Part shown: positions 36,790 through 53,844 of the stretch, piece by piece | Numbering within the stretch: the first letter of the stretch is position 1 | Layout of the letters: each line of letters begins with the position of its first letter | Source: Candidatus Dojkabacteria bacterium | Lineage (GTDB): Bacteria > Patescibacteriota > Dojkabacteria > B142 > OLB20 | Reading direction: 5' to 3' | Assembly (NCBI GenBank): GCA_035444565.1 | Contig: DAOMOX010000005.1 | Span: 5,045-69,044, forward strand | DNA length: 64,000 nt | Translations under genes and position numbers: made by a program | Notes under the pieces: model-generated | The model's database searches: none | The model's input: only the letters and a program-made list of their open reading frames with translations | What the model was told of the DNA's origin: nothing

Positions 36790-37695
36790 ATGAAAGGGAT
36801 AAAAAACATTTTTAATGGCATTATTATGGGAATTGCAGAAATAGTTCCTGGAGTTAGTGCCTCTACTGCCACGCTCTTACTAGGTATTTATGATGATTTT
36901 CTCAACTTATTAGAAGGTGTAACAAACTTTGTTAGAGATCTTCTACAATTCATAATCAGAAAAATCTCGAAAGATAAATTAATTAAATCATTTAAAAAGA
37001 TAAACTTTGCTTATGGTATTCAACTATTCATAGGAATGGTTATCGGAATAGTTCTCTTCTCTAATATCGTGGACTATTTCTACGAGAACAATAAAACGAT
37101 AGTACAAGCAATATTTTTTGGAATCATCCTTGCTTCAATTATCATCCCAATTAAAGTTGTAAAGAAACCCAATTTAACGGATTTATTATTCTTAATCATA
37201 GGATTTGTTGCATTTTTCTCAGTTTTAAAGATGGGGCAAGTAAGCAATGCAGATTCTATTCCACTTTGGTTAATTTTCATCGGAGGGACAATAAGTGTCT
37301 CGGGGATGGTGCTACCTGGAGTAAATAGCTCTTTTGTTCTAATTCCATTGGGGGTTTATGAATTAATCTTAAAAATGGTAAAAGAATTTAGTAGACTCAA
37401 CTTCACTTTTGAATTAATCACTCAGGCGTTAGTTTTTGGTTCTGGTGTAGCATTTGGATTAATTAGTTTTGTAAAAGTTCTAAAATACGCTTTTAAAAAT
37501 CATATCACTAAACTATTCTCTCTAATTGCTGGCATTATGCTTGCGTCCTTGATTAGTCTATGGCCTTATCAAAATATTGATTATACGAGCAAAGATTCAC
37601 TAATAATCTCAGTATTATTAATCATCTCACTAATATTAACTCTAGGATTTATACTAAAGACTAAACCTGAAGAAGAGGTTACACTAAAGCGTTAA
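36790..37695 (+). CDS. DUF368-family polytopic membrane protein
   Basis: 'GIIMGIAEIVPGVSASTATLLLGIY' and a second 'GMVLPGVNSSFVLIPLG' repeat resemble the duplicated DUF368 motif. Its start is 2 nt after the preceding stop. Confidence 0.45.
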   Translation: MKGIKNIFNGIIMGIAEIVPGVSASTATLLLGIYDDFLNLLEGVTNFVRDLLQFIIRKISKDKLIKSFKKINFAYGIQLFIGMVIGIVLFSNIVDYFYENNKTIVQAIFFGIILASIIIPIKVVKKPNLTDLLFLIIGFVAFFSVLKMGQVSNADSIPLWLIFIGGTISVSGMVLPGVNSSFVLIPLGVYELILKMVKEFSRLNFTFELITQALVFGSGVAFGLISFVKVLKYAFKNHITKLFSLIAGIMLASLISLWPYQNIDYTSKDSLIISVLLIISLILTLGFILKTKPEEEVTLKR

Positions 37696-37750: not shown

Positions 37751-38089
37751 ATGGAAACTGCCAAATCCTCAAGTAGCTTGTTATTGAAACTTTCTGTTGC
37801 TTTTTTCTTTTTTTCACTAATTACTACACTAATAGTAGTCGGATTATTAATCTCTAGAAGCTCAGGGAAAACCTGTAACTATAACGGAACAATTTATAGC
37901 AATGGTGAAGGATTTATGGATGACTGCAATAGTTGCAGTTGCAGTGATGGAGATGTGGCCTGCACAACTATGGCTTGTGAGGTAGGTGATGAAGACATAT
38001 TCTACCCTGAGTCAGACTACGAAGATGACGAGGCTGTGGTTGATGATGAATATCCAGAAGTTACCGAAGCATTATCAGAAACCCCTTAA
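37751..38089 (+). CDS. Small secreted Cys-rich protein with an acidic tail
   Basis: Signal or anchor 'LSVAFFFFSLITTLIVVGLLI', then 'CNYNGTIYSNGEGFMDDCNSCSCSDGDVACTTMACEV' (8 Cys in 37 aa), then a D/E-rich tail. Confidence 0.45.
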   Translation: METAKSSSSLLLKLSVAFFFFSLITTLIVVGLLISRSSGKTCNYNGTIYSNGEGFMDDCNSCSCSDGDVACTTMACEVGDEDIFYPESDYEDDEAVVDDEYPEVTEALSETP

Positions 38090-38091
38090 TT

Positions 38092-38463
38092 TCAAATAAA
38101 CAAATCCAAAATTTTCGGAAGAAAGATTAAAATTGCCACATTAACAGAGAATATTGCTGAGATAAGTACTGCCCCAGCAGCTAGGTCTCTTGCATTTTTT
38201 GTAGAGTCATAACTCAAACCCAGATCATCTCTTAATTTATTACAGATATCCTCTAAAACAGTATTCACAGTTTCTAGGCTCATCACGAGGCTGAAACAGA
38301 TAAACACTGCAATCCATTCCATTAATGAAATATTGAAAAGAAGTCCGGCTACAGTGACTACTACCACAGCAATAATGTGGACACGCATATTTCTCTCTTT
38401 CGAGACCAGCGAAAGACCTCTTATTGCATGTGGGAAGCTTTTGAAGACTTTTTTAATATCCAT
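38092..38463 (-). CDS. dgkA: Diacylglycerol kinase / undecaprenol kinase family (DgkA)
   Basis: 123 aa with three TM. 'SLETVNTVLEDICN' (E..NTA.E-like) and 'KNARDLAAGAVLISAI' match DgkA catalytic motifs. Confidence 0.65.
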   Translation of the reverse strand: MDIKKVFKSFPHAIRGLSLVSKERNMRVHIIAVVVVTVAGLLFNISLMEWIAVFICFSLVMSLETVNTVLEDICNKLRDDLGLSYDSTKNARDLAAGAVLISAIFSVNVAILIFLPKILDLFI

Positions 38464-38472
38464 AGAAAAATT

Positions 38473-39840
38473 TTAGTCTGGAACGGTTATCTGTTCGACA
38501 TCTTTTGTGCTATTTTTTGGAAGCCAGCCTGTTTGGCCATTCGATAATTCAATCCTGTACCATTCTGCTGTTTCTTGGATCATTTTAAATTGTTCCCCTT
38601 CTTCGGCTAAGTAAATAACATTTGCACTCAAGCTGTTCGTCTCGTACACACGATATTTTGAATCCTGAGTGGTTAAACCGACATTTAGTTCGTCAAAAGT
38701 GGTTTGTGACTCATCGGTTTTCTCTGTTTCAGCTCCTTGCACAGAAGATGATGGCTCAACAGATGGTGTATTTGTTGCCTCTATTTGATCACTCTCTGAA
38801 TTTTGAGTAGGTGGGACAAGTTCCATCCAGCATTTTCTCTCCATAACACCAATCACATCTTGTATGAAGACTAAGTACATCAAAATCATAAAGAATAAGA
38901 AAGCTAGAAGATTGATTAATTTTTTATTCTTTTTCATTTTCTTGTTATTTTTCATTTCCTTGAATGTATAGTAAGCAGTCAATGCCAGGCCTATTAATGA
39001 TACCCCGACAAATATTGGTAATCTATTATTACTGATTACCTCTGGAGCTCCTGAACAAACTTCTTCGAAAACCTTCTCAGGAAGGACATTAAATACCACT
39101 CTATTTTCATAGAGTGATTCACCACCTACGAAAACCTTTATATTTCCATAATATTCTCCAGCAACAAGACCATGGTTTTTAATTATTGCTTTGACATCGG
39201 AGAATACATACGCTGGTGCTTGTTCAATTATATCCGTCTCTAACACAGCAATTTCTTTTTCGAGTAGATTTTGAACCGTAACTTCAACTTTCGATGGAGC
39301 AAGGTTTGTATTTCCGTTATTTTGTATCTTCAAATCAACAGTCATTTCCTCTTTCTCGTAAGTATCTGGGATACTTGCAGCTCTAATTTCTAGGTCAATT
39401 AAACTATCTTCCGTAGTGGCTAATTTAATATCAACCCTCGCACCTTTAACTATAGAAACACCTTTTACTTTTTCTTTTGGTGTAGCTAAAATTCTAAACA
39501 ACCCCGTATAATTTTTGGTTGCAGCGTCGGCTGGAATATTAACAATTACTTTTATTGGCACCCTTGTTTCCCCTACAGGTAATGTTACGTTCATACTCGG
39601 TTCAAATGTCACCCATCCATTCAATTCACCTAAGTCAGGTTCTATTATCGCTACAAGCTCTTCATCTGGATCAGACCTGGAGATAATCATATCTTGAACG
39701 TATTGTGTACCTTTCTTAAGTGAGCTATTTGTAACACCAGCAGGAGAAATTCCAAAGCCAGCATGTACAGTCTCAGGCAAGAACAAGAGTAAACTGAAAC
39801 TAAATAAGATTGTAATTAATAATTTTTTCATTGTTACCAT
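38473..39840 (-). CDS. Membrane protein with an extracytoplasmic N-domain, a central TM and a C-terminal bacterial SH3-like domain
   Basis: Signal peptide 'LLFLPETVHA'. TMs 'LPIFVGVSLIGLALTAYYTF' and 'LLAFLFFMILMYLVFI'. C-terminal 'AEWYRIELSNGQTGWLPKN' is SH3b-like. It overlaps the upstream gene by 7 nt. Confidence 0.5.
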   Translation of the reverse strand: MVTMKKLLITILFSFSLLLFLPETVHAGFGISPAGVTNSSLKKGTQYVQDMIISRSDPDEELVAIIEPDLGELNGWVTFEPSMNVTLPVGETRVPIKVIVNIPADAATKNYTGLFRILATPKEKVKGVSIVKGARVDIKLATTEDSLIDLEIRAASIPDTYEKEEMTVDLKIQNNGNTNLAPSKVEVTVQNLLEKEIAVLETDIIEQAPAYVFSDVKAIIKNHGLVAGEYYGNIKVFVGGESLYENRVVFNVLPEKVFEEVCSGAPEVISNNRLPIFVGVSLIGLALTAYYTFKEMKNNKKMKKNKKLINLLAFLFFMILMYLVFIQDVIGVMERKCWMELVPPTQNSESDQIEATNTPSVEPSSSVQGAETEKTDESQTTFDELNVGLTTQDSKYRVYETNSLSANVIYLAEEGEQFKMIQETAEWYRIELSNGQTGWLPKNSTKDVEQITVPD

Positions 39841-41591
39841 TGAACTAATTCTCCAAGTACTGATAATACGGTATTTGTTCCATTATATACACCTGGAGGA
39901 ATACCAGTAGGAATTTCTAGACCCCACCAGATGTTTTCTATTTCAGGTGAAGATGAAGATGTGGTTTTTAAAATATTAATTTCGTATTCTGTTGCTGTAG
40001 TACTTAATACAGACCCACTAGCATAAGCAGTACTGGCTGCAAGTGCGTGTTTTTGATATCCTACACCTATTACTCCACTTCCACCATCTGTCATATCAGT
40101 TCCAGACAAATCCGTATCAATACCTGTATTTCCAGTGTTTGTAACTGCTGTAATTTTATCCAATGGATCATTTTTCTGGCCTACGTCCAGTGAGCCGTAG
40201 TTTATACTGCTGGTTACATCTAAGCCTGAAACTGTGGCCACCTCTACTCCTGCACCAACTTCTACTGCATGTGTTGCTGCATCATCATCGATTGCGTTCA
40301 CTGTGTTTAACCAATTTTGTGCTGGATACTGTGAATTCGCATCTGTAGGATCAGCATGATATTGGACAACCACCGTACATGTATAGTCTGCAGTTTCATC
40401 GGTACTTCCAGAACATGTGGCACCTACAACTGTACAAGAGACTTGTGCATAGCAATAATTGTCATTGTCCTCTGCATTAGTATCGCAACCTGAGTAAGCA
40501 ATTGCACTTCTATATAAACTTGTTTCAACTGTTGTAATATCTTGACAGCTATTTTTATCTTGAACGGTTGCTGTGACGGGAACATTCAATGTATCACCTT
40601 CAGGAACTGAAATATTTGCTGCTCCATTAAGCGTTACAGAACTAACCACAGGTGCGAGATTGTTTATAATATAAGCACCTGTTCGATAATTCGATACTGA
40701 AGCAAAACTGTGACTATCAAATACATAAGCATAGTAGTTAATTGTGGTATCGGGTGCTACTGCGGCAATACTAATCTGACAGCTAGGATTTGACGCGGTA
40801 TTCGTCGATGCACAAATTTGTGTACCAGCACAGCCCGATGCGGTCGCACCAGTCGTATCTGCACAAACTACCAACTTAACAGTATCCTGAACCGTATCAC
40901 TATCTCCATCTGAGGCTGTCGCTGTGAAGGTCATAGTTCCTCCTGGATTTGCTCCCGAGTCTGCTCCACCTCCACCGTTATCTGAAACAGCTGAGAATGA
41001 AGGGTCATGGTTGACTTTGAATGGGGAACCTGTAGCACCAGTACCATCATCACCTGGGGTAGAACAACTTGCTGATGATGAGTTATTGTCGCAAACGAAT
41101 GCATACCAGTCATTGCTTTCCACATCAGTTCCTTGAGTTGTATAGGTACATGAAGCTTGAACACCTGAATCAGTTGCAGTAGAGACACACCAAGTGCTAC
41201 TTGCAGCACAAGTTGGTGCAGCGCCTCCAACTCCTGCAGTAATTGCATCGGTTTTACAAATCGCAAGATAATAATCTTCTGCATTGGAGTCTGTCGCTGT
41301 AGCTTGGAATACTACATTCGAGCCTTCGTTTGTAGGGGTTGTACCATCGCTGGCAGTACTCTCAGCAGGACCTGCTGTAAAACTCGGTGCTGAGTTTCCT
41401 ACTGTCACAGTAGTTGTGACAGTTTCGGCATGTACCAATATCTTAAAACTTAAAAGCAAAACAACTAAAAAGACAAAAAGTCCAAGGGTAATATACACAA
41501 AATTTCTTATCTTCTCTGTCGTCATCGAAATAAATATGTGTGAACTAAAATGTACCATAATTAACAATGTACTACAATCATCTAAATACAA
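39834..41591 (-). CDS. Surface protein, paralog A of the giant-protein C-terminal domain family (the likely start is the internal Met 'MTTEKIRNF')
   Basis: Signal-anchor 'ITLGLFVFLVVLLLSF'. It shares 'AEDYYLAICKTDA', 'CDTNAEDNDNYCYAQVSCT' and 'GIPPGVYNGTNTVLSVLGEL' with 41595..43292 and with the C-terminus of the 3266-aa protein. Confidence 0.6.
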   Translation of the reverse strand: MYLDDCSTLLIMVHFSSHIFISMTTEKIRNFVYITLGLFVFLVVLLLSFKILVHAETVTTTVTVGNSAPSFTAGPAESTASDGTTPTNEGSNVVFQATATDSNAEDYYLAICKTDAITAGVGGAAPTCAASSTWCVSTATDSGVQASCTYTTQGTDVESNDWYAFVCDNNSSSASCSTPGDDGTGATGSPFKVNHDPSFSAVSDNGGGGADSGANPGGTMTFTATASDGDSDTVQDTVKLVVCADTTGATASGCAGTQICASTNTASNPSCQISIAAVAPDTTINYYAYVFDSHSFASVSNYRTGAYIINNLAPVVSSVTLNGAANISVPEGDTLNVPVTATVQDKNSCQDITTVETSLYRSAIAYSGCDTNAEDNDNYCYAQVSCTVVGATCSGSTDETADYTCTVVVQYHADPTDANSQYPAQNWLNTVNAIDDDAATHAVEVGAGVEVATVSGLDVTSSINYGSLDVGQKNDPLDKITAVTNTGNTGIDTDLSGTDMTDGGSGVIGVGYQKHALAASTAYASGSVLSTTATEYEINILKTTSSSSPEIENIWWGLEIPTGIPPGVYNGTNTVLSVLGELVQW

Positions 41592-41594
41592 TAA

Positions 41595-43292
41595 TTACCA
41601 TTCTGCCAACTCACCTTTAACTGCAGTCACAGTGTTGGTTCCCGTATATACTCCAGGCGGAATTCCCAAAGGAATTTCCAGACCCCACCAAGTATTTTTT
41701 GTTTCTGGTGCTACTGCGGATGTAGTCTTGGGAACGTTTAATTCATACTCTGTCAACACAGTAGTTAGAGTAGTTCCGCTAGAGTAAGCAGTTCCAGAAT
41801 TTAGGGAGTGTTTTTGATAATTTACTCCTATAACTCCACTGCCCCCATCTGTCATATCTGTACCTGCTAGTTCTTGATCCAACCCCACATTTCCAGTGGC
41901 AGTTACAACAGTGATTTTGTCTAATGGGTCATTCTTATCTCCAATGTTTAAAGAGCCGTAGTTAATTACACTCGTGACATCGAGAGCATTCGTTGTCAGT
42001 ACCTCAACACCTGCCGGGACTTCCAGGTCATGACTTTGTGAATTATCATCGATAACTTTTACTGTGCCCAACCAGTTCTCTAGTGGGAATAAACTATCTG
42101 TAAAAGTGGAGTCAGCGTGATATTGCATATCTACATTACAATCATAATCAGCAAATTCGTCAGTACTCCCGGTACAAGTTCCTCCCGTTAACGTACACGT
42201 CACTTGGGCATAGCAGTAATTATCATTGTCTTCTGCATCGGTATCACAGGCTGGATACCCTATCCCAGAACGATAAATATTCGTTTCCACTGTGGTGACA
42301 TCCTGGCAACTGTTCAGGTCGCTAATATTTGCATTGACTGGAACACTTGTAGTAATCCCTTCCGCTAATGAAATATTTAGCGAATTGTTTAAAAACAGAG
42401 AAACAACTGTAGGTGCAACGTTGTTAATTGTGTATGTTCCAGTTTCGTAGTTTGACAATGACGCGAAGCCATGGCTATCAAACACATATGCATAATAATT
42501 ATAATTTCCATCAGGAGCTACATTTGGAATATTAATCTGACAGGTCGGATTTGATGAGACATAAGCCGAATTACAAAGTTCAACTCCGGAGCAACCAGAG
42601 GCTGTTGCACCAGTGGTGTCCGCACAAACAACTAATTTGACTGTATCTTGAAGTGTATCGACATCGTCATCATTGGATGTACCTGTGAATGTGATTGTTC
42701 CTCCTGGATTTGAGCCAGTGTCTGCCCCACCCCCACCGTCATCTGTAATCGCTGTGAAAGTTGGGTCATGGTTAACCTTAAAAGGGGAACCAGTACTCCC
42801 TGAACCTGTCGCTCCCGGTGAAGAACAACTTGCATACGTTGCGTTGTTGTCACAAACGAAGGCATACCACTCATTACTCTCTGCATCGCTATCTTGTGTG
42901 GTGTATGTACATGATGCCTGGACACCAGAATCTGTCACCGGAGACACACACCAGCTTCCACCACTACAAGTAGGCGGAGCACCTCCTACTCCAGGAACAA
43001 CTGCATCAGTTTTACAAATTATAAGATAGTAATCCTCCGCGCTAGCATCAGTTGCAGTCGTTTGGAACGTTAAATCAGCTCCGACATTTATAGGATTATT
43101 TCCATCACTAGGAGTACTAGTCTCAGGTCCAGAAGTTATAACTGGAGAGGCATTCCCAGCAGTCACAATCGTGATTACGGTCTCTGCATAGACTGCAACC
43201 TTAAACACAGCCAAAAACAAACCAATGATGATTAGATTTGTTAGTAGATTTGATTTTTTAATTTTTAAAATTCTCAATTTATTAATTTCCAC
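41595..43292 (-). CDS. Surface protein, paralog B of the giant-protein C-terminal domain family
   Basis: Signal-anchor 'LIIIGLFLAVFKVAVYA'. It aligns along its full length with 39834..41591 ('VTAGNASPVITSGPETSTPSDG', 'CDTDAEDNDNYCYAQVTCT', 'GIPPGVYTGTNTVTAVKGEL'). Confidence 0.6.
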   Translation of the reverse strand: MEINKLRILKIKKSNLLTNLIIIGLFLAVFKVAVYAETVITIVTAGNASPVITSGPETSTPSDGNNPINVGADLTFQTTATDASAEDYYLIICKTDAVVPGVGGAPPTCSGGSWCVSPVTDSGVQASCTYTTQDSDAESNEWYAFVCDNNATYASCSSPGATGSGSTGSPFKVNHDPTFTAITDDGGGGADTGSNPGGTITFTGTSNDDDVDTLQDTVKLVVCADTTGATASGCSGVELCNSAYVSSNPTCQINIPNVAPDGNYNYYAYVFDSHGFASLSNYETGTYTINNVAPTVVSLFLNNSLNISLAEGITTSVPVNANISDLNSCQDVTTVETNIYRSGIGYPACDTDAEDNDNYCYAQVTCTLTGGTCTGSTDEFADYDCNVDMQYHADSTFTDSLFPLENWLGTVKVIDDNSQSHDLEVPAGVEVLTTNALDVTSVINYGSLNIGDKNDPLDKITVVTATGNVGLDQELAGTDMTDGGSGVIGVNYQKHSLNSGTAYSSGTTLTTVLTEYELNVPKTTSAVAPETKNTWWGLEIPLGIPPGVYTGTNTVTAVKGELAEW

Positions 43293-43345
43293 ATTTCTAA
43301 ATTTCTACATTTAATCTCCTTTCTCAATATCTTAATTTCTACATT
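43289..43345. repeat. Three tandem copies of a roughly 14-bp AT-rich motif (aatttc[c/t]acattt) in the gap between the giant gene and paralog B
   Basis: 'taatttccacattt', 'taaatttctacattta' and 'ttaatttctacattta' read directly from the sequence. Confidence 0.5.
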
Positions 43346-43348
43346 TAT

Positions 43349-46300
43349 TTACGGGATGTTATCATTCTTCGCTAATACAGTATTCACACCATCATACTCC
43401 CCCAAATTCTGTCCCAGATCCAGACCGAGCCGCCAATATAAGTTTTTCGTTTGAGTTGATGGTGAAGCTGTCGGTTTTGCGAGATTAAACTGAATCCTAA
43501 AAGCAGAAGAAGTTAAATCAGTTCCACTTCCGTACGTAAAAGTACTCATAGAGTATTCCTGTTGTCCTACAGCGATTGAATCTCCTGCACATGTGGGGTA
43601 ATCAGTACACATACTGTCTCCCAGTAATTCTAAGTCAAGGATTATATTCCCTTCATTCGTCACCAAAGTAGTTTTCTCCGAACTACTATCTCCCGCCAAC
43701 ATCAAACCATAGTCAATCGAGGTAACAATATCAAGTGCAGAGAGACTTTCTACATCAGGAGCATTTGTAGCACTAAATTCGCTTCCAGTATCACTGTGAC
43801 TATCAGTTGCTTCCATCCACCCTCTCCAATATTCTGACGGCATGGTGCTATTAGCGTCTGTCGCATCAGCATGGAAATACATTGCTGCAGTACAAGTCGC
43901 AGTACAAGTATTTCCAGAACAACCAGTTAAATCACATACTGCATCTGCATAACAGTTGTTATTATCTGGTGTACAGGCTTCCGCCCCCGCAACTCCTGAT
44001 CTATATAATTTGCCAGTCACTCCTGCAATTTCTGCATTTCCATCCAAGTCGGTTATTGTTGCAGTCCAACTAACATTATGTGTCGAACCTGCAGTAAGGC
44101 TAATATTTGAAGCTCCATTTACCACGACATTCGATATTGTAGGTGCGTTATTTGTCGTACCTGATAAAACCGTTTCCCAACCAATATTATAAGGTGATAA
44201 ATCTCCGATTGAGTATATTGCTCCTACTTTTCCATTTCCTGTGTTGTTTGCATTGTAATTCGTAAAGATTTCCGTCGCATCCGTAACAAGTGTAGTACTA
44301 GTACCCCACGACCAACTCGGACCTGCGGAATAAGTAGATTTTTTAGTAAAGATATCATCGCTCGTTGAGCCAATGTATCCGAGATAAACATCATTTGTTG
44401 CAGTATCTTTGGACAATCCTAAATAGGTGTTATCTGTGTTTGCATCGAGTGAAGCATTAGTAAAATCCCAATCTCCATCATATCGATCATAATAAATATT
44501 TCCTGACGAATTTACATACGCTAGGTGAACATAATCAATAGTGCTGATAGTTTGGCCGACAGTAGAGATATTTTTATGTAGACCTGTCGGGAGACCTGTC
44601 ACGATAGAATCCTGAACTCCGGGGACGGAAGCGGCTCCGAGTAATAGGCGGTTATAGAAGACATCTGTCCCATCTGAGTAGAGATAGTCGATCTCGTTTT
44701 GAGCGTCAGGATTTGTGGATTCAACCAGTATTTCTATCTTTCCAATATAATGATTCTCAACGTTTGCTTCATTCCAAATGCGTGTACTAATAGATTGCAC
44801 CTCGTTCCATGTCCATCCGCCACTTGGGGTAGTCAAAGTGGTGTAACTTGTCCAAGAAGGTGAATTTACTGATAGATAAAGGTCGTTATAACCGCTAGAT
44901 GTATTAACTCTAATGTATGTATCACTAGGAGAAACAGAATAGCCATATGCACGTGCCTTTACCGAAACAATAGTACTAGTAGTACTTGGTGCGTTTGTAC
45001 CATCAGCACGTAAATAGTTTGTTGTTGAACTACCAAGTGCTGTAGCATAGGCGTATGTGGAATTGTCCCCATCAAATGCATTTGCATCATCTGTCCACAC
45101 ACTATCGGGGTCTTGACAGCTCGATCCTGCAGTACAATTATCAGAGTTGTCGATATAATACGTATTCGTCTGAACTGGTGCCACACCGGTTGAATCGTAA
45201 TTATTTACATAACTCCATTTCGTTTTCACGTCTTGTAAAACTCCATGTGATTCGAGTACCGTCTCACCATTCCAACTCGTACCATTATATATATCATATA
45301 CCACGTCATCTTGATCATCCTTGTAAATTACATAAATATCTGAGCCGTATATGGCAATTGAAGGTTCGTACCCAACATCAGTTTTCGAGGTAATATTTGA
45401 CCAGTTACTAGTCCAAGTAGCCCCTTCATGCTTTGCTAACGTAACATAGTTTGTTGAACTCTCTACATAGGCTATCCAAGTATCTCCCGTCTCAGGGGAA
45501 ACCGCAATCGAAGGAATTCTCTGTCCATCAGTTATATTTACACTTGAATCAACTTGGTAATTAGTAAAGCTGGTCGCATTTGTTTGATTTCCAACAACTG
45601 CATTTAATGTACCATTCGCTCTTAAAAACACTATTTCAGGAATGTTAGAATCATTTATAGTAATATCTACATCACCTGTGGGTTGCGGTGTTCCAGATGC
45701 AATCTGAACACTTGTTTGCCAAATATTATTTGTTTTATTTTTATATTTAACAGAATAGGCACCACTAAAAGTACCCTGCTCAACCCATGCAATATGCACT
45801 TCCCCATTTTGGTCTATTGTCAATGCAAGTTCTTGTAACAAGAGATTGTTATTACCCGACAATTGAATTGTAGTTCCGAAAGTATCGGTATCGATAGAAT
45901 ATGTTGTACTTTCTATAAGATTTTGGACTGCGTTGTCTGGATATATGACTTGAATATTATCGTCACTATCAATCGCAGCAGCGATAGGTCCGCCTGAATC
46001 ACATTGTTCATTATCAGTGAGAGTCCAATTAGTTCCGTCTATACTTTTCCACATCTCGCAGTTTCCACCATCATTTAGAAAATTATACAACACTCCGCTA
46101 CTAGATCTAATGATCTGTCGTCCTGCCCCAGGCATAGTTCCAAAATCACTCACATCATCTACATTCGTCGGACTCCTCCTCAAATAAAGCGAATCGTAGT
46201 AAACATCCGTCCCATCAGAATATATGTAATCTATCGTATTGGGGCCGTAGTTATTCCATTCAAAAGCTGACTTTACTTTTACATTCTGGAAAGTGCCTTC

Positions 46301-49300
46301 ATGCAACACGGTTTCGCCTGCCCAATCTGTGCCATCATATACATCATATGCGATATCATCTTGGTCATTTTCATAGAAAACATACACATCCCCATTACCT
46401 GCAATTACTAAGGATGGTTCGTAACCTGCGTTTGTATTTGATGTAATAGTTGTCCAAGTAGACCAACTATCGGCATCAGCATGTTTCGCAAGTGCAATGT
46501 AATTATTAATATCAACATACGCTGTCCATGTATCACCAGTTATTGTATTAACTAACGAAGATGTTCCTCTCTGATTCATAGTATCATTCACATCAGTATC
46601 AACATCTTGCAATGTCCACTGACCTGCACTGTCGGGATTATTATCACTACCCAAAGCTATTGTAAGATCGTTGTCTAATCCATTTATAAAGGAAATCTCA
46701 GGGATGTCTTCGTCATTTATCGTAATACTACTCGAATGACCAGCTCCTGAAATCGTCTCTATCATGACAGAGTTGGTTAACCAAGCTGTGCTTACTCGAT
46801 TATTATAATATACTTCAGATGATAAAAATTCCACTAGGAAGGCGATATGAGGCTTATTACTACTATCTATTGTGATATCTAGATAACTAATATTCAATAG
46901 AGTGTCAGAGGAACCAACTTGTTCAGGAGTATTGAACAAATCGACACCTGTCAAATAAGTAACATACCATAGTTGATCACTAAAAGAATCATCAACAATA
47001 TATGTAGCATGTATAGTATCGTTTGAATCAATTGCAATACTTACTGGTCTATCTTGCTTACAAGTTTCACTGTCCCACCCTACCCAGACTATACCATCTG
47101 TACTTTTCCACATTTCACATCTTCCGCTATCATTCACGAAAGAATAAAGTACTCCCGATTTTGTACGTACCAATTGCCTTCCTGTATTACGGAGAGCTCC
47201 AAAATCACTCGCATCGTCGATATTGACTGAATCCGGTTGGAGTTGATAGAGTTTTGCGACTTCTTCCCCAGTTATTGCTCTATCGTAAACACGAACTTCA
47301 TCTATATATCCATTCCATGGTTCACCCGCGTCTGATTCAGCTCCTATCGTAAAATTCACTGAGTTTATTAAACTATTTACATCTGCTATTGTTCCTGTTG
47401 TCGAAGATTTTGAATCAACACCATTTATATAGATTGTAGAGTTTGTTGCGCTATCGTCATCAAAAACTACTGTAACTAGATTCCATCCACTAGTTGTCAT
47501 AGTAGTTGTTGTTTCAATTAAGAATTCATCTGAACCATCAGAAACCATAAATCTAACATCATCTAAATCTCCACTTCCGTCATTTCCATCGACCCATAAT
47601 AAATACCCCACCTCTGCAGTACTCTCACTATTTCTTTTTGCGATTATCTGATCATCACCCGTAAATGTTGTTCTGTTTACCCATGCTGAAAGAGTAAAGT
47701 CAGTTGAGTCTCCAAAATTAAGTACATTACCCATTGATACATAATCTCCTGTGCCATCAAAAGTTCCGCTCTTTCCAAATCCCGAGGATATTGTAGTTGC
47801 ATCTCCTATTCTTGTACCATCATAATTGTTCAATGTTTGATCAACTACCTCTCCTGAAGTACCATTCCAAGACACTTCATTCATTTTCCAATAACCTACG
47901 AGACCTTCTTCTAGAGAATCGAAATATTCCGACTCACCACCTCCACCTATTGTCGGGAGACAAGACGCACCTGTTCCGTCCTCCCACATCGTATCTGAGT
48001 CGTCCCACCTACACCCCAATAATCCAGTATCAACTACAAATGTCGCATACATATCTTCACTAGATAGCGCAGTCAATGTTCCGTAAACATTTAAGGACGT
48101 TTGGGCGTTAGAGAGCTGATATGGAGTAGTAGTCCAAGTCCAGGTTGATGGATCTGTTGAAGCTGCTTCTGCAGAGACGACGGTTTTGTAGACATAGTCA
48201 CTTCCGTCATTATATGTTGCACCCACCCAGATATGATTTGCAGAATCAAATGATATATAAGGTCTTGAATATGTGCCAGTTTCATCCATAGCGATGGATA
48301 CGTCAGTATCCCAAGTAACATCCGTTCCACTCAAAGTACCCTGGCGGAGCTTAATACTCCCGCCATCAGCTACGGCAACTACTATATACTCAACTGTACT
48401 TATTGACCTCCACCACACTGAAAAGTCATTTGTGTCATATGGAAGTCGACCACTTGCAGTCGTTGCTGGATTTGTCCAAGTTGAACCCTCATCACTAGAA
48501 TATTTCACCTCTATCTCATCTCCATCATGATTGAAACTCCAGTATCTGGAATTTTGATCATCATAGATTACCTTTCTCTGGAAAGATGAGCCTGTTGTGT
48601 CTTGGTTTGTGGAAGTTCCAATACAACCGTTGGGGGATATTGTCCAGTTTGCACTGTTATTGCCTGAGTTGACTGAGTTGCCTGCAGTTACGGATTTTGT
48701 TGTTAAATTAATATCTTGTAAATCAACATGCGAGACCGATGCACTTGCTGATACATCTACAGCTAAAGTCGCTTGAACTCCATTTGCAGAAGTCCTAAAA
48801 CGCATCATATTGGAACAATCCGTTCCAGTCAGAGTGAGAGAACCATTAGCAACAATAGATTTTGTACCTGCAGTCCCCAACTTTACTTCTCTATCACCAG
48901 TAGCGATTTCGAGAGTGTGGAAAGAAACTGCACCATTCAAACTTTGAGATGTGTCTACTGCACTATCGAGGATTACCTTGCCATCGTTGTGTGTGAAGGT
49001 TCCATTATTAGTGAAATCTCCTGCTACACTTAGAGGTGCCGCTTGGTTTGAGGACGCTGAATATGTACCATAAGTGTTAACAAGTATATCTCCTTCAACT
49101 GTTACTTCAGCATCGTTGGTGTTTATGTCAAAAACAAGTGTTGATGGTGCTGTAGATCCAATAGTTAGATTATTCGAAACATTTAGAGTGCCAGAATTAA
49201 GAGTATAAGTCACATTTGTTAATCCAAGACTAGTACCTACCTCTAAATTATAATAATTTAGTGCAGGTATTGAAATATCATCGTATACATTGTATTTTAC

Positions 49301-52300
49301 TGTCGATGTTGAGGGAGTAAATGTACCATTAATGATAAATGGGGTACTTGTTCCCTGGAGCAATATCAGATTCCCCCCAGCATTAAATGTTCCTGCATTA
49401 ATTGTAAAAATATCTGTGATAGTTAAATTCCCACTCGAAGTGAATGTAGTCCCTGTTTGGTTTAGGGTGAGGTTATTATATGTTTCGGCTTGGATTTCCG
49501 TAGCAGATCCCCCTGCATACTCGATAGTTGAATTTGTACCCTCATTTAAATTACCCGATATAATAAATGGTCGAGAAGAGCCTGTCCCAGAACCTGTTAT
49601 TTTTAAATTATAACCGGACGATTGAAGGTTTAACGCACCAGTTTCGCCAATATTTATCCTAGTTAGAGTTATAGAACTCCCTAGTTGAACTGTTTTATTA
49701 GCTTCCAATATTCCTAAATCCTGCTTAGTACTATTATTGTCGGTTATAACAATACTATTCGTGCCACCCAGAATTGTCTCTTGATTATTCTTTATCCAAG
49801 TAGAATTATTATTCAGGGTAATGTTCCCCCTTATTGTTGAAAATCCTCCGGAAGATATCCAATCTATACTAACAGGATTAGTTCCATCTCCGATTGATAT
49901 ATCGTTCATAATTAATTGGTTGCCAGAACTATCCATTATATATGTAGGGTTTCCTACTGCTGAAGGTTTTATCTCGAGATTATGGTATGTAAGTTCTGCA
50001 ACGGAAACATTTGAGTTAGAAGTATATTTAAAAGTCGAGGTATCCTCATTCAGCGTTCCCCCTGTTATGACAAGTGGGGAACCACCTCCTGTAAGATTAA
50101 TAGTATTACCATCCGCTATTAATATCCCTACTATCCGCAGTGCTTTAGTTGTAATATTCCCAGAGCTTGTTGAGTCCGGTCTATATGTATTTCCACTTTT
50201 TATATATATTTCAGCTGAGCTTTTGCTAGTATCATTAAGAGTCAAATCGTTTGAAGCATCAACATCGTAAAATATATCTTCGTCTGCAGAGACACTGTTA
50301 TCGTACTGACTTAGGTTAGCATTTGTTATTGTTCTATTGTCAGAATTTCCTATAGAGAGTCTTTGTTCTATCAGCTCTACTCCAGCGACATTCCCACTTC
50401 CATCATATGTGGTCACAGCAACCGCTTCGTCAGCCTCTCCAGCTCCATCAATAAATACAGTTATCACATCACCATTATTTGGGCTTGTTAATCCTGAAAT
50501 TGTCCAAGTTCCCGCAACAGTGTTTTGAACTTGTGCTTGTATAGAACCATTAATAGCTACCTTTATCGTCCCTGTATCTGTACAATTTGTTGTTTGGTCA
50601 TCTTGTTTACATGTTCCCGAAATATCTATCGCTGGGCTCGCGACATTTACCGTTGGATGTGATGAAATATTTGTCAAGGTCCCCCCAGCATCAAATCTAG
50701 TCCTTGTAGTGAATTCATCAATACCACTAGTGCTAGGCACATCTGCACCACTTGTTCCACCTCCGGCACCGTAAGTCACAGTAACCGTATCCGTTGATGC
50801 AAGATCTAAAAATCTTGCACGTATATCCACATCAGGGCCATTTGCCACAAACGTGGGACTTCCAGGTCCTACCATCACCTCATCAAGCCAAAATGTATTA
50901 CTGTCACAACCGGTAGTATCACATATCAGTCCAAAAGCCGTGATTGCAGTACGAGTACCTGTCATATCAAAAACGAAATATGTCCAAGTATTTGCAGATA
51001 CGGTACCTGTATCGAATATCGCTACTGGAGAACCAAATATTGCATTATTGTCGTAGCCGAAGTCAATTCCGGCAGCGCTAGTCAGTGCTTTAGTTGATCT
51101 CAACCAGAAAGATATCTGAGTATAGCTACTCCAATTTTGTGCGGACGCATCAAATGAGAAAGTATCCGTATCGTCAGGTAGTGCTGAGCTTGAGTTATTA
51201 CACTGTATTGCACCAGCACCTTCCTTTTTTGTAGTTGTATCCACAAAAGGACTAGCGGTTGTGTTGCACATATCAGAATCATCCTCTGTTAATGTCCAAA
51301 CACCCTGGGAAGTACTGTCTCCCGATACGAGTACATTCCCAATAGTCGTATTCCCAGATCCTGAAACAGTAGTGTATCCTGCAGTTCCTGCACTACCTTG
51401 TGGTGTCGACCAACCCCTACTTGTGGGAACTTTTATTGCCAACTCACCAGAATTAAGAACTTCTGATGGATCGTAAGTGAAAGTAAATGTCTGATCTGTT
51501 GAACCCATCAAAACACCTGTTGGAACAACCACATTTGTTCCGCTTCCGTCTGCATCACTTGCTATTTGCCACATTCTGACCTCTTGATAATCACCTATTG
51601 ACAGGGGACCTGTCAGGTAGAGAAATGGACTTATATCTGGGGCATCAAAAAAGTAAGAGTATGTAGTGTTTTCTCCTTTTTTGAGATCCACATCCCAAGT
51701 TATTGTTTGCCATGTTTCTTCGCTTGTTGTTTCAAATCCTTTTATTAAAAACCCTTTTGGCACTCTTTCAGTGATTTTACCAATGAAATCCTGATTCGCA
51801 ATCACTGTGATTTCCATAGGATACGCTACAAAAGGATATATTCTACTTGGCCCTTTCCTCTCGATTGAGTATGGGACTTCTGCCCGAACTTCATAAAAAT
51901 CTTCAATCTGATAACCATTATCTTTGTTTACCAGTGTCATTTTGTGTTTTCCAACTCCCTCAGCTTTGTGTGATGCTAGATAATCTGGGACATTAGTTAC
52001 ATTGTCTCTTTCACAAAAACCACTTTGTTTCACTTCGGGATTTGATTCTTTTCCTGACGGACTAGTAATTTTCAATTCTAAATCTGCGTCACAAATTGTG
52101 TGTCCATCGTGCTTCAGAGCTCCCATATTTAATGTGATTTCTTCACCAGGAATAAATGTCGCTTTATTCGTGTTTACGGAAAGAACTCCATAGGTAAAAT
52201 CTTTCTCCTGCTGGTAATACACTCCATCTTTGTATACTTCAAGTAGTGCCTCGTAAGCTCCGGGAGGGATTTTGTTTCGCGCAATCCTGACCGAGAAGGA

Positions 52301-53149
52301 TTTTTCACCTTCTCGGTCTACAACGAACTGTGGATTGAGCTTTTTGCCATCGTAATCCGTGAGTACCAATTGAGGTTGATTCTCATCCGAAGCGAAGGCT
52401 GGATGGATAATGTATTTCAAAATTTTTGTTTTTGTAGATAACTCGTAATCGTATTCAAAAACCAAGTCTGTATCAGCAGTAGCATTGATATTTACGGCTT
52501 TTTCATCTCCTGGAACTTTTTGGGTGATTTTGATTCTGTCCAGTTGGTCTTCGACAATAAACGCTCCAAATAAGAAAAATACAAGGATTAGTAACTTGTT
52601 GAAATTTGGAGAATGTATTGTTTTATCAATTAATTGATAACCTGTTTTTACGAATTCCGATAACAAAGAGTAAACCTTTTTGATACTTAGGTTTATTTTG
52701 TTTAACTTCGGAAGGATAGTATTTAGTGATTTTAAACTATTAAGACTTAATCCAAGATTTAGTCTTTCCTTGATTAAATTCAAGTTATTAAGACCGGATT
52801 TAAACTTTATACTTCTTTTAAATAGAAATTCCATAACTTCTAAATCTCTCAATTTCTTAATTTTTACATTTTCCTTAGACCTGGCTTTAAATTGAATTTT
52901 AAATTTCCTGAATCTGCGCTTTATATTGATAATTTCACCAATATGGTCTTCCTCGAACTTTACTCGGAAAGTCTTGTAGCGACCAACCAAGTTTTTACTG
53001 AATAGATTCGTAGTTTTGAAAAGAAACGTTGTATAAATTGGGAGGTTTTTTGTGAGGAATTTCTTGCCAACAAGAAAAAAGGTTTGGGCCATTGAAAGCA
53101 ACCTACGACAGTATATACGAATGTTTCGCCTAATTAAACGAATGTGCAA
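43349..53149 (-). CDS. Giant (about 3266 aa) membrane-anchored surface protein with LamG-like, BNR/sialidase-like and beta-helix-like repeat regions. The true start is probably downstream of 53149, for example Met-106 at 52834
   Basis: TM 'LLILVFFLFGAFIV' near residue 186. LamG-like 'GLVGYWKMNEVSWNGTSGEVVDQTLNNYDGT...DFTLSAWV'. BNR-like 'YSSDEGSTWTNP', 'WKSTDGIVW' and 'WKSIDGTNWTL'. Long NxT/G-rich stretches. The C-terminal roughly 270 aa are shared with the two downstream paralogs. The first roughly 100 codons are K-rich and look like translated AT-rich leader. Confidence 0.8.
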   Translation of the reverse strand: MHIRLIRRNIRIYCRRLLSMAQTFFLVGKKFLTKNLPIYTTFLFKTTNLFSKNLVGRYKTFRVKFEEDHIGEIINIKRRFRKFKIQFKARSKENVKIKKLRDLEVMEFLFKRSIKFKSGLNNLNLIKERLNLGLSLNSLKSLNTILPKLNKINLSIKKVYSLLSEFVKTGYQLIDKTIHSPNFNKLLILVFFLFGAFIVEDQLDRIKITQKVPGDEKAVNINATADTDLVFEYDYELSTKTKILKYIIHPAFASDENQPQLVLTDYDGKKLNPQFVVDREGEKSFSVRIARNKIPPGAYEALLEVYKDGVYYQQEKDFTYGVLSVNTNKATFIPGEEITLNMGALKHDGHTICDADLELKITSPSGKESNPEVKQSGFCERDNVTNVPDYLASHKAEGVGKHKMTLVNKDNGYQIEDFYEVRAEVPYSIERKGPSRIYPFVAYPMEITVIANQDFIGKITERVPKGFLIKGFETTSEETWQTITWDVDLKKGENTTYSYFFDAPDISPFLYLTGPLSIGDYQEVRMWQIASDADGSGTNVVVPTGVLMGSTDQTFTFTYDPSEVLNSGELAIKVPTSRGWSTPQGSAGTAGYTTVSGSGNTTIGNVLVSGDSTSQGVWTLTEDDSDMCNTTASPFVDTTTKKEGAGAIQCNNSSSALPDDTDTFSFDASAQNWSSYTQISFWLRSTKALTSAAGIDFGYDNNAIFGSPVAIFDTGTVSANTWTYFVFDMTGTRTAITAFGLICDTTGCDSNTFWLDEVMVGPGSPTFVANGPDVDIRARFLDLASTDTVTVTYGAGGGTSGADVPSTSGIDEFTTRTRFDAGGTLTNISSHPTVNVASPAIDISGTCKQDDQTTNCTDTGTIKVAINGSIQAQVQNTVAGTWTISGLTSPNNGDVITVFIDGAGEADEAVAVTTYDGSGNVAGVELIEQRLSIGNSDNRTITNANLSQYDNSVSADEDIFYDVDASNDLTLNDTSKSSAEIYIKSGNTYRPDSTSSGNITTKALRIVGILIADGNTINLTGGGSPLVITGGTLNEDTSTFKYTSNSNVSVAELTYHNLEIKPSAVGNPTYIMDSSGNQLIMNDISIGDGTNPVSIDWISSGGFSTIRGNITLNNNSTWIKNNQETILGGTNSIVITDNNSTKQDLGILEANKTVQLGSSITLTRINIGETGALNLQSSGYNLKITGSGTGSSRPFIISGNLNEGTNSTIEYAGGSATEIQAETYNNLTLNQTGTTFTSSGNLTITDIFTINAGTFNAGGNLILLQGTSTPFIINGTFTPSTSTVKYNVYDDISIPALNYYNLEVGTSLGLTNVTYTLNSGTLNVSNNLTIGSTAPSTLVFDINTNDAEVTVEGDILVNTYGTYSASSNQAAPLSVAGDFTNNGTFTHNDGKVILDSAVDTSQSLNGAVSFHTLEIATGDREVKLGTAGTKSIVANGSLTLTGTDCSNMMRFRTSANGVQATLAVDVSASASVSHVDLQDINLTTKSVTAGNSVNSGNNSANWTISPNGCIGTSTNQDTTGSSFQRKVIYDDQNSRYWSFNHDGDEIEVKYSSDEGSTWTNPATTASGRLPYDTNDFSVWWRSISTVEYIVVAVADGGSIKLRQGTLSGTDVTWDTDVSIAMDETGTYSRPYISFDSANHIWVGATYNDGSDYVYKTVVSAEAASTDPSTWTWTTTPYQLSNAQTSLNVYGTLTALSSEDMYATFVVDTGLLGCRWDDSDTMWEDGTGASCLPTIGGGGESEYFDSLEEGLVGYWKMNEVSWNGTSGEVVDQTLNNYDGTRIGDATTISSGFGKSGTFDGTGDYVSMGNVLNFGDSTDFTLSAWVNRTTFTGDDQIIAKRNSESTAEVGYLLWVDGNDGSGDLDDVRFMVSDGSDEFLIETTTTMTTSGWNLVTVVFDDDSATNSTIYINGVDSKSSTTGTIADVNSLINSVNFTIGAESDAGEPWNGYIDEVRVYDRAITGEEVAKLYQLQPDSVNIDDASDFGALRNTGRQLVRTKSGVLYSFVNDSGRCEMWKSTDGIVWVGWDSETCKQDRPVSIAIDSNDTIHATYIVDDSFSDQLWYVTYLTGVDLFNTPEQVGSSDTLLNISYLDITIDSSNKPHIAFLVEFLSSEVYYNNRVSTAWLTNSVMIETISGAGHSSSITINDEDIPEISFINGLDNDLTIALGSDNNPDSAGQWTLQDVDTDVNDTMNQRGTSSLVNTITGDTWTAYVDINNYIALAKHADADSWSTWTTITSNTNAGYEPSLVIAGNGDVYVFYENDQDDIAYDVYDGTDWAGETVLHEGTFQNVKVKSAFEWNNYGPNTIDYIYSDGTDVYYDSLYLRRSPTNVDDVSDFGTMPGAGRQIIRSSSGVLYNFLNDGGNCEMWKSIDGTNWTLTDNEQCDSGGPIAAAIDSDDNIQVIYPDNAVQNLIESTTYSIDTDTFGTTIQLSGNNNLLLQELALTIDQNGEVHIAWVEQGTFSGAYSVKYKNKTNNIWQTSVQIASGTPQPTGDVDITINDSNIPEIVFLRANGTLNAVVGNQTNATSFTNYQVDSSVNITDGQRIPSIAVSPETGDTWIAYVESSTNYVTLAKHEGATWTSNWSNITSKTDVGYEPSIAIYGSDIYVIYKDDQDDVVYDIYNGTSWNGETVLESHGVLQDVKTKWSYVNNYDSTGVAPVQTNTYYIDNSDNCTAGSSCQDPDSVWTDDANAFDGDNSTYAYATALGSSTTNYLRADGTNAPSTTSTIVSVKARAYGYSVSPSDTYIRVNTSSGYNDLYLSVNSPSWTSYTTLTTPSGGWTWNEVQSISTRIWNEANVENHYIGKIEILVESTNPDAQNEIDYLYSDGTDVFYNRLLLGAASVPGVQDSIVTGLPTGLHKNISTVGQTISTIDYVHLAYVNSSGNIYYDRYDGDWDFTNASLDANTDNTYLGLSKDTATNDVYLGYIGSTSDDIFTKKSTYSAGPSWSWGTSTTLVTDATEIFTNYNANNTGNGKVGAIYSIGDLSPYNIGWETVLSGTTNNAPTISNVVVNGASNISLTAGSTHNVSWTATITDLDGNAEIAGVTGKLYRSGVAGAEACTPDNNNCYADAVCDLTGCSGNTCTATCTAAMYFHADATDANSTMPSEYWRGWMEATDSHSDTGSEFSATNAPDVESLSALDIVTSIDYGLMLAGDSSSEKTTLVTNEGNIILDLELLGDSMCTDYPTCAGDSIAVGQQEYSMSTFTYGSGTDLTSSAFRIQFNLAKPTASPSTQTKNLYWRLGLDLGQNLGEYDGVNTVLAKNDNIP

Positions 53150-53216
53150 TTTTATAAAATGAAAATCAACCTCAATATCAGTCTAGAGAAAATTGAGGGA
53201 TATGTCTACCTCCTTT

Positions 53217-53510
53217 GTCACTCCGCGGCTTGACCGCGGAGTCCCGTTTTTCCCATAAGTGCGCCACAGGGAGGGACCACGGGATTCCGTTTTTCCCATA
53301 AGTGCGATATACCGGGCATACGAGATTCCGTGCTTAAAGCACGGAATGACCTCAGGGGTTTCGTTGCCCCGCTGTCACTCCGCGGCTTGCCTGCCACGAG
53401 GAATATCCCACCCGGAAGTCATCCCGTGGCTTGACCACGGGATCCCGTTTTTCCAATTAATCGTTTGAGCAGATAGTTCAGGACTCCGTGGTCAAGCCAC
53501 GGAGTGACGA
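53217..53510. repeat. Cluster of GC-rich palindromic repeats upstream of the GIY-YIG gene. It contains 'gtcactccgcggcttgaccgcggagtc', the hairpin 'gattccgtgcttaaagcacggaatgacct' and the 'ccgtggcttgaccacgg' variants
   Basis: Several inverted-repeat units with 8-10 bp stems, read directly. The same units recur at 53857..54028 and partly at 31826..31876. Confidence 0.7.
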
Positions 53511-53553
53511 CGAAAATTCACAATTATTCCAGAACATTCAATTACAATTCACT

Positions 53554-53844
53554 ATGAAAACCTACTTCGTTTACATAACCACTAACAGAAAACGTGGCGT
53601 TCTCTACATTGGTGTAACTAACGACTTAGTTCGTAGAATCTATGAACACAAACACAAGATAAAATGTAAGTTTTCCGCTAGATATAATGTTAACAAGTTA
53701 GTCTATTACGAGATTCACTTCAGAGCGATGAGCGCTATACATAGAGAGAAAAGATTAAAAGAATGGAAGCGAGACTGGAAAATCGAACTTATTGAGAGGT
53801 CGAATCCATTGTGGGAGGACTTGTATGAGTCTATTTCGTGCTGA
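53554..53844 (+). CDS. GIY-YIG nuclease family protein (small YhbQ-like)
   Basis: 'MKTYFVYITTNRKRGVLYIGVTNDLVRRIYEHK' is a canonical GIY-(10-11)-YIG N-terminus. The upstream in-frame extension to 53488 is encoded by the repeat and is probably not translated. Confidence 0.7.
   Translation: MKTYFVYITTNRKRGVLYIGVTNDLVRRIYEHKHKIKCKFSARYNVNKLVYYEIHFRAMSAIHREKRLKEWKRDWKIELIERSNPLWEDLYESISC

Follow-up and report, generated by a model that had tools for sequence, protein, structure and literature searches.

Members of the Patescibacteria (the candidate phyla radiation, CPR) are believed to spend their lives attached to other cells; for most of them, type IV pili and the Pam pili described recently are, to our knowledge, the only means of contact known. 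A five-gene operon in a 64-kb stretch of DNA from a metagenome-assembled genome (MAG) of an ultra-small Candidatus Dojkabacteria bacterium (Patescibacteria/CPR; contig DAOMOX010000005.1), hereafter the window, poses the question of what a protein of more than 3,000 residues, two paralogous proteins of about 560 residues, a protein with an SH3b domain and a dgkA-family lipid kinase are doing side by side. An earlier note on this DNA, made from the sequence alone, regarded the locus as a prime candidate for host- or substrate-attachment machinery, with envelope remodeling coupled to it through the SH3b protein and the kinase. We conclude that these genes form a surface-assembly cassette found throughout the Patescibacteria, which probably builds or anchors attachment structures and has dgkA as a passenger; it is best read as an usher-less, chaperone- or anchor-dependent system for surface display or fiber formation in which the giant protein is a mosaic adhesin. 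Three features had been missed by the earlier note, namely a C-terminal module that the giant shares with the two paralogs, the PapD-like nature of the 455-residue protein, and the synteny of these genes across the CPR.

Gene Layout and Integrity of the Giant Open Reading Frame

The five co-directional minus-strand open reading frames (ORFs) reported in the earlier note were all found at the coordinates given there, with junctions of -7 to +56 bp. All coordinates are window positions, and all features of the operon lie on the minus strand. The first gene (43349..53149) encodes the giant surface protein, with 3266 amino acids (aa) when read from the first TTG; the GenBank record (HRP51834.1, “LamG domain-containing protein”) has 3247 aa, and the true start is therefore likely to be the ATG at 53092. 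Separated from it by 56 bp is parA (41595..43292; 565 aa; HRP51833.1, “hypothetical protein”), followed after 3 bp by its paralog parB (39834..41591), which has 585 aa when read from a TTG; its start is probably the ATG at 41525, and the resulting length of 563 aa agrees with that in the relative L004. A 7-bp overlap leads into the gene for a PapD-like/SH3b protein of 455 aa (38473..39840; HRP51831.1, “SH3 domain-containing protein”), and a 9-bp gap separates the latter from the dgkA-family gene (38092..38463; 123 aa; DAGK_prokar). The giant and ParA are 100% identical to HRP51834.1 and HRP51833.1, and the 455-aa protein shares a cluster of at least 90% identity with HRP51831.1. GC content across the operon (window 38000–54000) is 0.36–0.42, peaking at 0.42 over parA and parB, with lower values of 0.34–0.36 in the flanks; candidate causes of this excess are a Thr-, Gly-, Ala- and Asp-rich composition or a foreign origin.

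The earlier note had named an assembly artifact such as a collapsed repeat as the finding that would undo its interpretation of the giant. This explanation was rejected on the basis of recurrence in four assemblies, the existence of orthologs and the near-absence of DNA tandem repeats. At 90% identity or more the giant is present in three GenBank MAG records and one Joint Genome Institute contig; orthologs of 3254–3268 aa that are 56–83% identical occur on contigs of 29–129 kb; and the relative L004 (∼70% identical) repeats the whole five-gene arrangement. Inside the ORF no DNA tandem repeats were found beyond one 2-copy 34-bp unit near the 5′ end (52862–52929), which falls within the Lys-rich N-terminal extension of the protein.

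One C-Terminal Module in the Giant and the Two Paralogs

The C-terminal module of the giant (residues 2979–3260; 43370..44215) is homologous to residues 274–557 of ParA (domains D3 and D4; 41622–42473) and 294–577 of ParB (39861–40712), with 32–37% identity, E values down to 1e-45 and weaker similarity extending back to residue 2892. A phmmer search with the C-terminal segment of the giant against 1.84 billion cluster representatives recovered the module in 1181 of them, 832 at E ≤ 1e-10. Among the 150 best matches, which range from 158 to 4157 aa (median ∼1080 aa), the module ends no more than 25 residues from the C-terminus in 131. The module carries a single conserved (Y/W)-W-G-(I/L) motif. 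The giant, described earlier as among the largest conceivable bacterial ORFs, is large without coming near the bacterial maximum, and module-bearing relatives reach 5531 aa.

Most relatives of the giant have an ordinary short N-terminal signal peptide in place of its extension and hydrophobic segment, and in these proteins the module is therefore the only visible means of cell association. Some large module-bearing relatives from cassettes of other lineages (L002 1626–9950; P0016 and P0020) carry Peptidase_M23, DUF2341 or Ig_Rha78A_N domains, and the cargo of the module is thus not always a lectin-type adhesin.

Two Cysteine-Rich Paralogs with a Candidate Donor Strand

The two paralogs, whose kinship the earlier note recognized, are 66% identical. 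In ParA the signal peptide is followed by an orphan N-terminal strand, which is conserved, and by four immunoglobulin (Ig)-like beta-sandwich domains (D1–D4); in its AlphaFold2 model D3 (residues 295–424) has 8–9 strands and is joined by a linker to D4 (437–559) with 7 strands. Cysteine makes up 2.8–2.9% of ParA and ParB, and the ∼560-aa family to which they belong has 16 invariant Cys and an invariant terminal Trp, with 45–83% identity across lineages that bear different phylum-level names.

The conserved N-terminal peptide of mature ParA (residues 36–50, AETVITIVTAGNASP; 43143..43187) has the family consensus DxVxTSVTVGNSAP and is nearly invariant at A36, T41, V43, N47 and P50. In the monomer model residues 33–44 have a predicted local distance difference test score (pLDDT) below 50. 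The peptide mimics the last strand and linker at the D1–D2 (PFKVNHxPxF) and D2–D3 (YTVNNVAPVV) junctions and, because of this likeness, residues 36–50 are a candidate donor strand; judged from sequence, the peptide would in effect be a terminal strand without its domain. The giant has the module and lacks the orphan strand, and in other places small proteins occur that are made up of a signal peptide, the orphan strand and the module. Members of the ParA cluster and of the cluster of the 455-aa protein were found on many contigs from several sources.

A Membrane-Anchored Protein with a Predicted PapD-Like Fold

The 455-aa protein begins with a signal peptide (residues 1–27). Its structure model (pLDDT 85) has a pair of beta-sandwich domains of PapD-like/WxLIP-like fold (residues 28–264; 39049–39759), a transmembrane hairpin (273–326; 38863–39024), a disordered linker and an SH3b domain (395–441; 38518–38658; SH3_3, E = 4e-7 at residues 397–441), and the predicted topology places both the PapD-like domains and the SH3b domain outside the cell. 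The model matches the PapD-like/MSP/ASH fold class, with values of 11.1 for FimC, 10.2 for CsuC and SafB, 10.0 for YadV, 9.7 for EcpB, 9.6 for PapD and CfaA and 9.5 for CupB2, and it also matches an enterococcal WxL-interacting protein (WxLIP).

The conserved core of this family is the signal peptide, the two beta-sandwich domains and a transmembrane helix, to which a second helix, the linker and SH3b are added in 33 of 62 homologs. The label “SH3b protein” used in the earlier note is thus right about a domain that is present and misses the main part of the molecule, which the model predicts to be primarily a membrane-anchored two-domain PapD-like/WxLIP-like protein with SH3b as an add-on. The family has no sequence-level match to PapD_N, DUF916 or DUF3324, and Pfam scans of every member of this family and of the ParA family (64 members) found no DUF916, DUF3324, PapD_N, WxL, SCPU or fimbrial family, returning only weak matches to CopC, TcfC E-set, CARDB and GH123_N.

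Synteny across Patescibacteria and the Position of dgkA

We compared 77 nonduplicate loci from genomes of Dojkabacteria/WS6, Shapirobacteria, Doudnabacteria, WWE3, Paceibacterota, Kaiserbacteria, Sungbacteria and Parcubacteria, and counted as evaluable those in which the parA-like gene is flanked by 3 kb or more on each side, 34 in all, which span the first seven of these lineages. A PapD-like gene is present at 33 of these 34, and another module-bearing protein at 26, usually encoded immediately upstream and 1000–5500 aa in length (up to 5531). The trio of a large module-bearing protein, a ∼560-aa protein and a PapD-like protein is therefore syntenic across the Patescibacteria.

Some contigs with the full cassette (L010, L014, L025, L035, L038, L040, L060, L066 and others) are titled “uncultured Gammaproteobacteria,” “Pseudomonadales,” “Caldisericales” or “Deltaproteobacteria.” Most of these have a low GC content (0.34–0.39), resembling the loci of named Patescibacteria. 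Such titles may be mistaken; should they be correct, the cassette extends beyond the CPR.

The fifth gene stands apart from the trio. Its identification as dgkA is firm (DAGK_prokar, 84.6 bits against a cutoff of 22.3, E = 5e-24), the product has hydrophobic stretches at residues 24–70 and 93–123, and the 9-bp gap suggests that it is probably cotranscribed with the cassette. It adjoins the cassette only in the close relative L004, however, and is present but not adjacent in two of the 77 loci, and dgkA was rejected on synteny as a functional member of the cassette. Near it on the plus strand lies a VCA0040-like gene resembling undecaprenyl phosphate translocases (36790–37695). Because the synteny is loose and the neighbor is of this kind, we infer that dgkA is a lipid-carrier housekeeping passenger; the neighboring gene suggests that it takes part in recycling of the lipid carrier, perhaps as an undecaprenol kinase, and not in the work of the surface proteins. 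The same two observations leave the earlier idea of envelope remodeling coupled to adhesion without support.

Domain Architecture and Variation of the Giant

The giant is, as the earlier note observed, rich in T (11.7%), S (10.1%), G (8.5%) and N (7.8%), and also in D (8.1%). Its N-terminus consists of a Lys-rich extension of ∼160 aa followed by the sole hydrophobic segment of the protein (residues 180–204; 52538..53092 for the whole region), in keeping with the N-terminal membrane anchor noted earlier, and this segment would be either a signal anchor or an atypical signal peptide. The extension is kept only among close relatives and is the least conserved end of the giant (31–98% identity among orthologs). 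Next comes a membrane-proximal module of ∼300 aa (residues 240–535; 51545..52432) with 31–46% identity to many giant CPR proteins, for which Pfam gives weak MG2 and Ig-like hints.

Residues 900–1560 (48470..50452) contain degenerate internal repeats that are solenoid-like by sequence and match no family; they may form a putative beta-solenoid. A beta-helix, as announced in the earlier note, was not confirmed, the only sign of it being degenerate repeats confined to residues 900–1500. Nor did its repeated BNR motifs hold up: a motif scan found a single canonical BNR/Asp-box motif, SSDEGSTW (residues 1551–1558; 48476..48499), where shuffling gave an expectation of 0.01 for S-x-D-x-G-x-T-W, together with two near-motifs (STDGIVW and SIDGTNW).

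The LamG-like module proved to be well founded. A LamG/concanavalin-like lectin domain spans residues 1798–1965 (47255..47758; Laminin_G_3, E = 1e-27), scoring 97.5 bits against a gathering cutoff of 27.6 with the full profile (1–151) covered, and a PDB profile search with orthologs of the giant returned only LamG-type domains (4qvs at 1e-8, 5hon and 3flp). A match to the N-terminal (lectin) domain of sialidases is sub-threshold and overlaps LamG. Behind the lectin domain lie two tandem repeats of ∼355 aa (residues 1965–2320 and 2320–2680; 45110..47257) that are ∼40% identical and contain 6–7 blade-like sub-repeats each; these may be putative beta-propellers and match no family.

When the giant was cut into nine segments and searched against Pfam at E ≤ 5, no family of BNR, beta-helix, propeller or enzyme type came up, and there were only weak MG2, Ig-like and CBM_11 hints. 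NCBIfam and PHROGs scans gave no match, and LamG and SH3b were the only matches when the PDB was searched by sequence with the giant and ParA and with profiles of the ParA family and of the giant's orthologs. Enzymatic content, which would have spoken against an adhesin, was thus not detected: no catalytic family was found in the giant, whether by whole-protein scans against Pfam and NCBIfam, by the segment-wise Pfam searches at E ≤ 5, by PDB profiles or by PHROGs.

Identity among four orthologs is distributed as a mosaic. It amounts to 84–91% over residues 200–1000, about 50% over 1000–1400, 79–94% over 1400–1800, only 22–58% over 1800–2800, where the tandem repeats are the most variable part, and again 80–89% over 2800–3266. 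One ortholog is 96–100% identical over residues 300–900, yet 22–33% identical over 1800–2200. This pattern looks like that of a ligand-binding cassette under diversification or recombination, and we nominate residues 1800–2800 as the specificity determinant for this organism. The attachment role that the earlier note assigned to the locus is accordingly plausible for the giant, given its lectin-type LamG domain, its hypervariable LamG and repeat region and the lack of a catalytic family; the functions by which that note linked the other genes to attachment were wrong or incomplete.

Proposed Mechanism and Alternative Explanations

In the mechanism that we propose, the proteins would be exported by Sec, and the PapD-like protein would then capture the shared C-terminal module by beta-strand complementation. 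ParA and ParB would polymerize in donor-strand fashion, by way of the orphan N-terminal strand, into a short stalk or fiber whose base would remain on the PapD-like protein, tethered as that is to membrane and peptidoglycan. The giant, because it has the module and lacks the orphan strand, would be the distal adhesin, following the logic of FimH and PapG, and its hypervariable region of LamG and tandem repeats would bind a ligand on the host or substrate. Strand complementation, an open acceptor groove and polymerization are the steps that we infer. This version, a ParA/ParB donor-strand fiber on a PapD-like base with the giant at the far end, is the one that we prefer, tentatively and with rather less than even confidence.

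Three observations weigh against it. First, no sequence homology of the cassette proteins to PapD_N, DUF916, DUF3324, WxL or fimbrial families was found. Second, D4 resembles the complete N-terminal sandwich of GH123. Third, the giant in this clade is extended by 180 aa at its N-terminus, and its hydrophobic segment shows no obvious site for signal peptidase; if this segment is an uncleaved anchor, a tip position would be awkward.

The alternative that survives best is a static, WxL-like anchor, in which a tethered PapD-like/WxLIP-like receptor permanently binds the module one to one and displays its bearers noncovalently on the cell surface, as has been proposed for WxLIP and WxL proteins of Firmicutes, with no polymer formed; we regard it as possible, though on the unlikely side. 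The cassette mirrors the commonest WxL cluster, which has one WxLIP and small and large proteins sharing a C-terminal domain; the wall-binding SH3b domain of the 455-aa protein suits a stationary anchor; D4 seems to be a complete sandwich; and small proteins made up almost wholly of a signal peptide and the module exist, like the small WxL proteins. Such an anchor leaves unexplained, however, why the orphan strand is nearly invariant and why the ∼560-aa family is so conserved, the WxL, DUF916 and DUF3324 hidden Markov models gave no match, and the one experimentally solved CPR system with membrane-anchored PapD-like proteins is a polymer.

A domain shared by several surface proteins is typical of S-layer-associated families, and S-layer proteins are typically poor in cysteine. 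An S-layer or envelope lattice with the ∼560-aa proteins as subunits, the giant as an embedded accessory and the 455-aa protein as a tether would fit the first of these traits, since the module is common to several surface proteins here, and the occurrence of ParA and 455-aa clusters on many contigs from several sources also speaks for it, as does a survey that lists putative S-layer proteins in Patescibacteria (bioRxiv 10.1101/2024.05.28.596244). We nevertheless consider a lattice improbable: the candidate subunits are rich in cysteine, with 16 invariant residues, Pfam scans revealed no SLH or other known anchoring domain, an identity of 45–83% across phylum-level names is unusually high, and the partner has a chaperone-class fold.

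Nor do we expect, with a slightly smaller likelihood still, that the cassette is a degradative or attack complex in which the large module-bearing proteins are displayed enzymes that degrade glycans or walls and are directed at a host or polymer, and the repeat, solenoid-like and LamG parts of the giant are catalytic or substrate-binding. A beta-helix or propeller is a frequent scaffold of glycoside hydrolases or lyases, and the Peptidase_M23 or DUF2341/Ig_Rha78A_N domains of some relatives point the same way; against this, no catalytic family was found in the giant in any of the domain searches described above, and the propeller and beta-helix folds are themselves putative. That five unrelated surface or envelope genes are neighbors by chance is strongly disfavored and very improbable, since the loose linkage of dgkA is all that recommends it, whereas the PapD-like gene stays beside the ∼560-aa gene at 33 of the 34 evaluable loci, in many CPR lineages, the giant and the paralogs share a homologous module, and the junctions are as short as -7 to +56 bp.

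Flanking Regions

Directly upstream of the operon are two tandem LiaF-like/toast-rack membrane proteins of an envelope stress sensor family (54041–55774, minus strand), and L004, the relative with ∼70% identity, has this pair in synteny (7864–9596). The intergenic region upstream of the giant gene (53190–54060) is full of short GC-rich palindromes, e.g., GTCATTCCGTGCTTTAAGCACGGAAT and ACTCCGCGG(N)CCGCGGAGT, several of which score as terminator-like hairpins. They flank a plus-strand ORF for a GIY-YIG nuclease (53488–53844; Pfam E = 2e-14), an arrangement that looks like an insertion of the repetitive extragenic palindrome or miniature inverted-repeat transposable element type with a homing-type nuclease.

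On the other side, convergent with dgkA, is a gene for a protein of 112 aa (37751–38089, plus strand) that is also present in L004 and matches Pacifastin_I (E = 6.5e-9), VWC (E = 1.5e-7) and RECK FnI (E = 5e-7), Cys-rich modules of eukaryote type that are unusual for a CPR genome. Further away on the plus strand are a fusion protein of a SLOG/LOG-like domain (Lysine_decarbox/LDcluster4) with a class I methyltransferase domain (35556–36788) and a gene pair for phosphoketolase (XFP) and acetate kinase (28280–31779). A tmRNA gene (Rfam RF00023, 111 bits) is listed with 62725–63187 (minus strand), and no tRNA genes were found in the 64-kb window.

Comparison with Known Systems

The closest parallel within the CPR is offered by the Pam pili of Candidatus Mycosynbacter amalyticus (Saccharimonadia), which are usher-less filaments built by donor-strand exchange with membrane-anchored PapD/FimC-like chaperones (Troman et al., bioRxiv 10.64898/2026.03.03.709456). 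Likenesses and differences were judged by the described layout and neighborhood of the Pam genes. On this footing both systems are CPR-specific, exported by Sec and devoid of an usher; both have two-domain PapD/FimC-like proteins in which a transmembrane helix is kept at the C-terminus; and both have two paralogous, disulfide-containing major subunits of Ig fold per operon, represented here by the Cys-rich paralogs. The module of the cassette, a sandwich of 8–9 strands, a linker and a second sandwich, is compatible in gross layout with the Pam pilin and its nine-strand N-terminal domain, linker and C-terminal domain, although ParA has two further Ig domains ahead of the module, and a large “tail fiber-like” gene reported in Pam neighborhoods invites comparison with the giant. 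The differences are nonetheless considerable. Subunits of the cassette have four Ig domains and 16 conserved Cys, whereas Pam pilins have two domains and 2–3 Cys pairs; only in the cassette does the subunit module occur on a protein of several thousand residues; the chaperone-like protein of the cassette bears SH3b and one more transmembrane helix; and the five genes include no equivalents of PamT, PamE or PamR. ATP synthase genes belong to the Pam neighborhood, and none of the ORFs scanned over ∼15 kb to each side of the operon encodes such a subunit; the PamA and PamB structures (25PZ and 25QA) were not among the matches listed in the PDB searches. An overlap of this cassette with the “language-model” PamA homologs reported in Microgenomatia is a real possibility.

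In the WxL clusters of Firmicutes, a WxLIP (DUF916, DUF3324 and a transmembrane segment) is encoded with small and large proteins that share a C-terminal domain, and insertion of a strand by the WxLIP has been predicted (Hassan et al. 2023, PMC10599100). The cassette follows this pattern by analogy only, with one membrane-anchored protein of two Ig domains beside mid-sized and large proteins sharing a C-terminal domain. In both systems the large protein bears N-terminal binding domains, and the strand insertion predicted for WxL partners is what we propose here. Unlike the WxL domain, the module has two domains (∼280 aa) and no dual W-x-L signature, and Pfam gave no WxL match in the giant, its C-terminal segment or the 64 ParA-family members; the hosts are Patescibacteria rather than Firmicutes, and the cargo reaches 3000–5500 aa.

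The resemblance to the chaperone-usher systems (Fim, Pap and Csu) lies in the division of labor between subunits. The tip adhesins FimH, PapG and CsuE combine an N-terminal receptor-binding part with a subunit-like C-terminus and have no donor strand, as would be the case for the giant, and ordinary subunits carry a conserved N-terminal strand, as does the ∼560-aa family. In contrast to these systems, the host of the cassette has no outer membrane and the chaperone-like protein is membrane-anchored; no usher family was matched by the five operon proteins or the scanned flanking ORFs; the subunits have four domains instead of a single truncated Ig domain; the candidate adhesin is ∼10 times larger; and donor-strand exchange is putative for the cassette.

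Other giant proteins of Patescibacteria (2000–5500 aa) likewise bear signal peptides, vary between lineages and contain Ig-like, LamG and solenoid-like parts, and many share the ∼300-aa module found at residues 240–535. What sets the giant of this locus apart is its tie to a conserved assembly cassette via a specific C-terminal module. Literature searches found no description of this cassette or of the link between such a giant and it.

Because the Pam ATP synthase and accessory genes, WxL, DUF916 or DUF3324 matches and an usher are all absent from what was scanned, and because Pam was compared by description, we assign the cassette to none of these systems as a member, although it works like all three. 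Together with its PapD-like partner, the module (∼1200 cluster representatives, almost always terminal) can serve as a flag for the surface-displayed repertoire of a genome that does not depend on annotation. Going beyond the donor-strand fiber that we prefer, it is possible, if doubtful at this stage, that the cassette represents a third, Patescibacteria-wide class of usher-less, PapD-like-dependent assembly, linked in evolution to the Pam, WxL and chaperone-usher systems, in which a universal two-domain “plug” of ∼280 aa mounts swappable mosaic cargo of up to 4000–5500 residues on a conserved stalk of four Ig domains. In that case the module-bearing clusters, which number more than 1000, would make up most of the host-contact effector repertoire of these episymbionts, with lectin or propeller adhesins as the cargo here and M23 peptidases elsewhere. 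Our findings suggest that chaperone-type beta-strand complementation may be widespread in bacteria without an outer membrane, which would connect chaperone-usher pili, WxL clusters and Pam pili, three systems that have so far been described separately.

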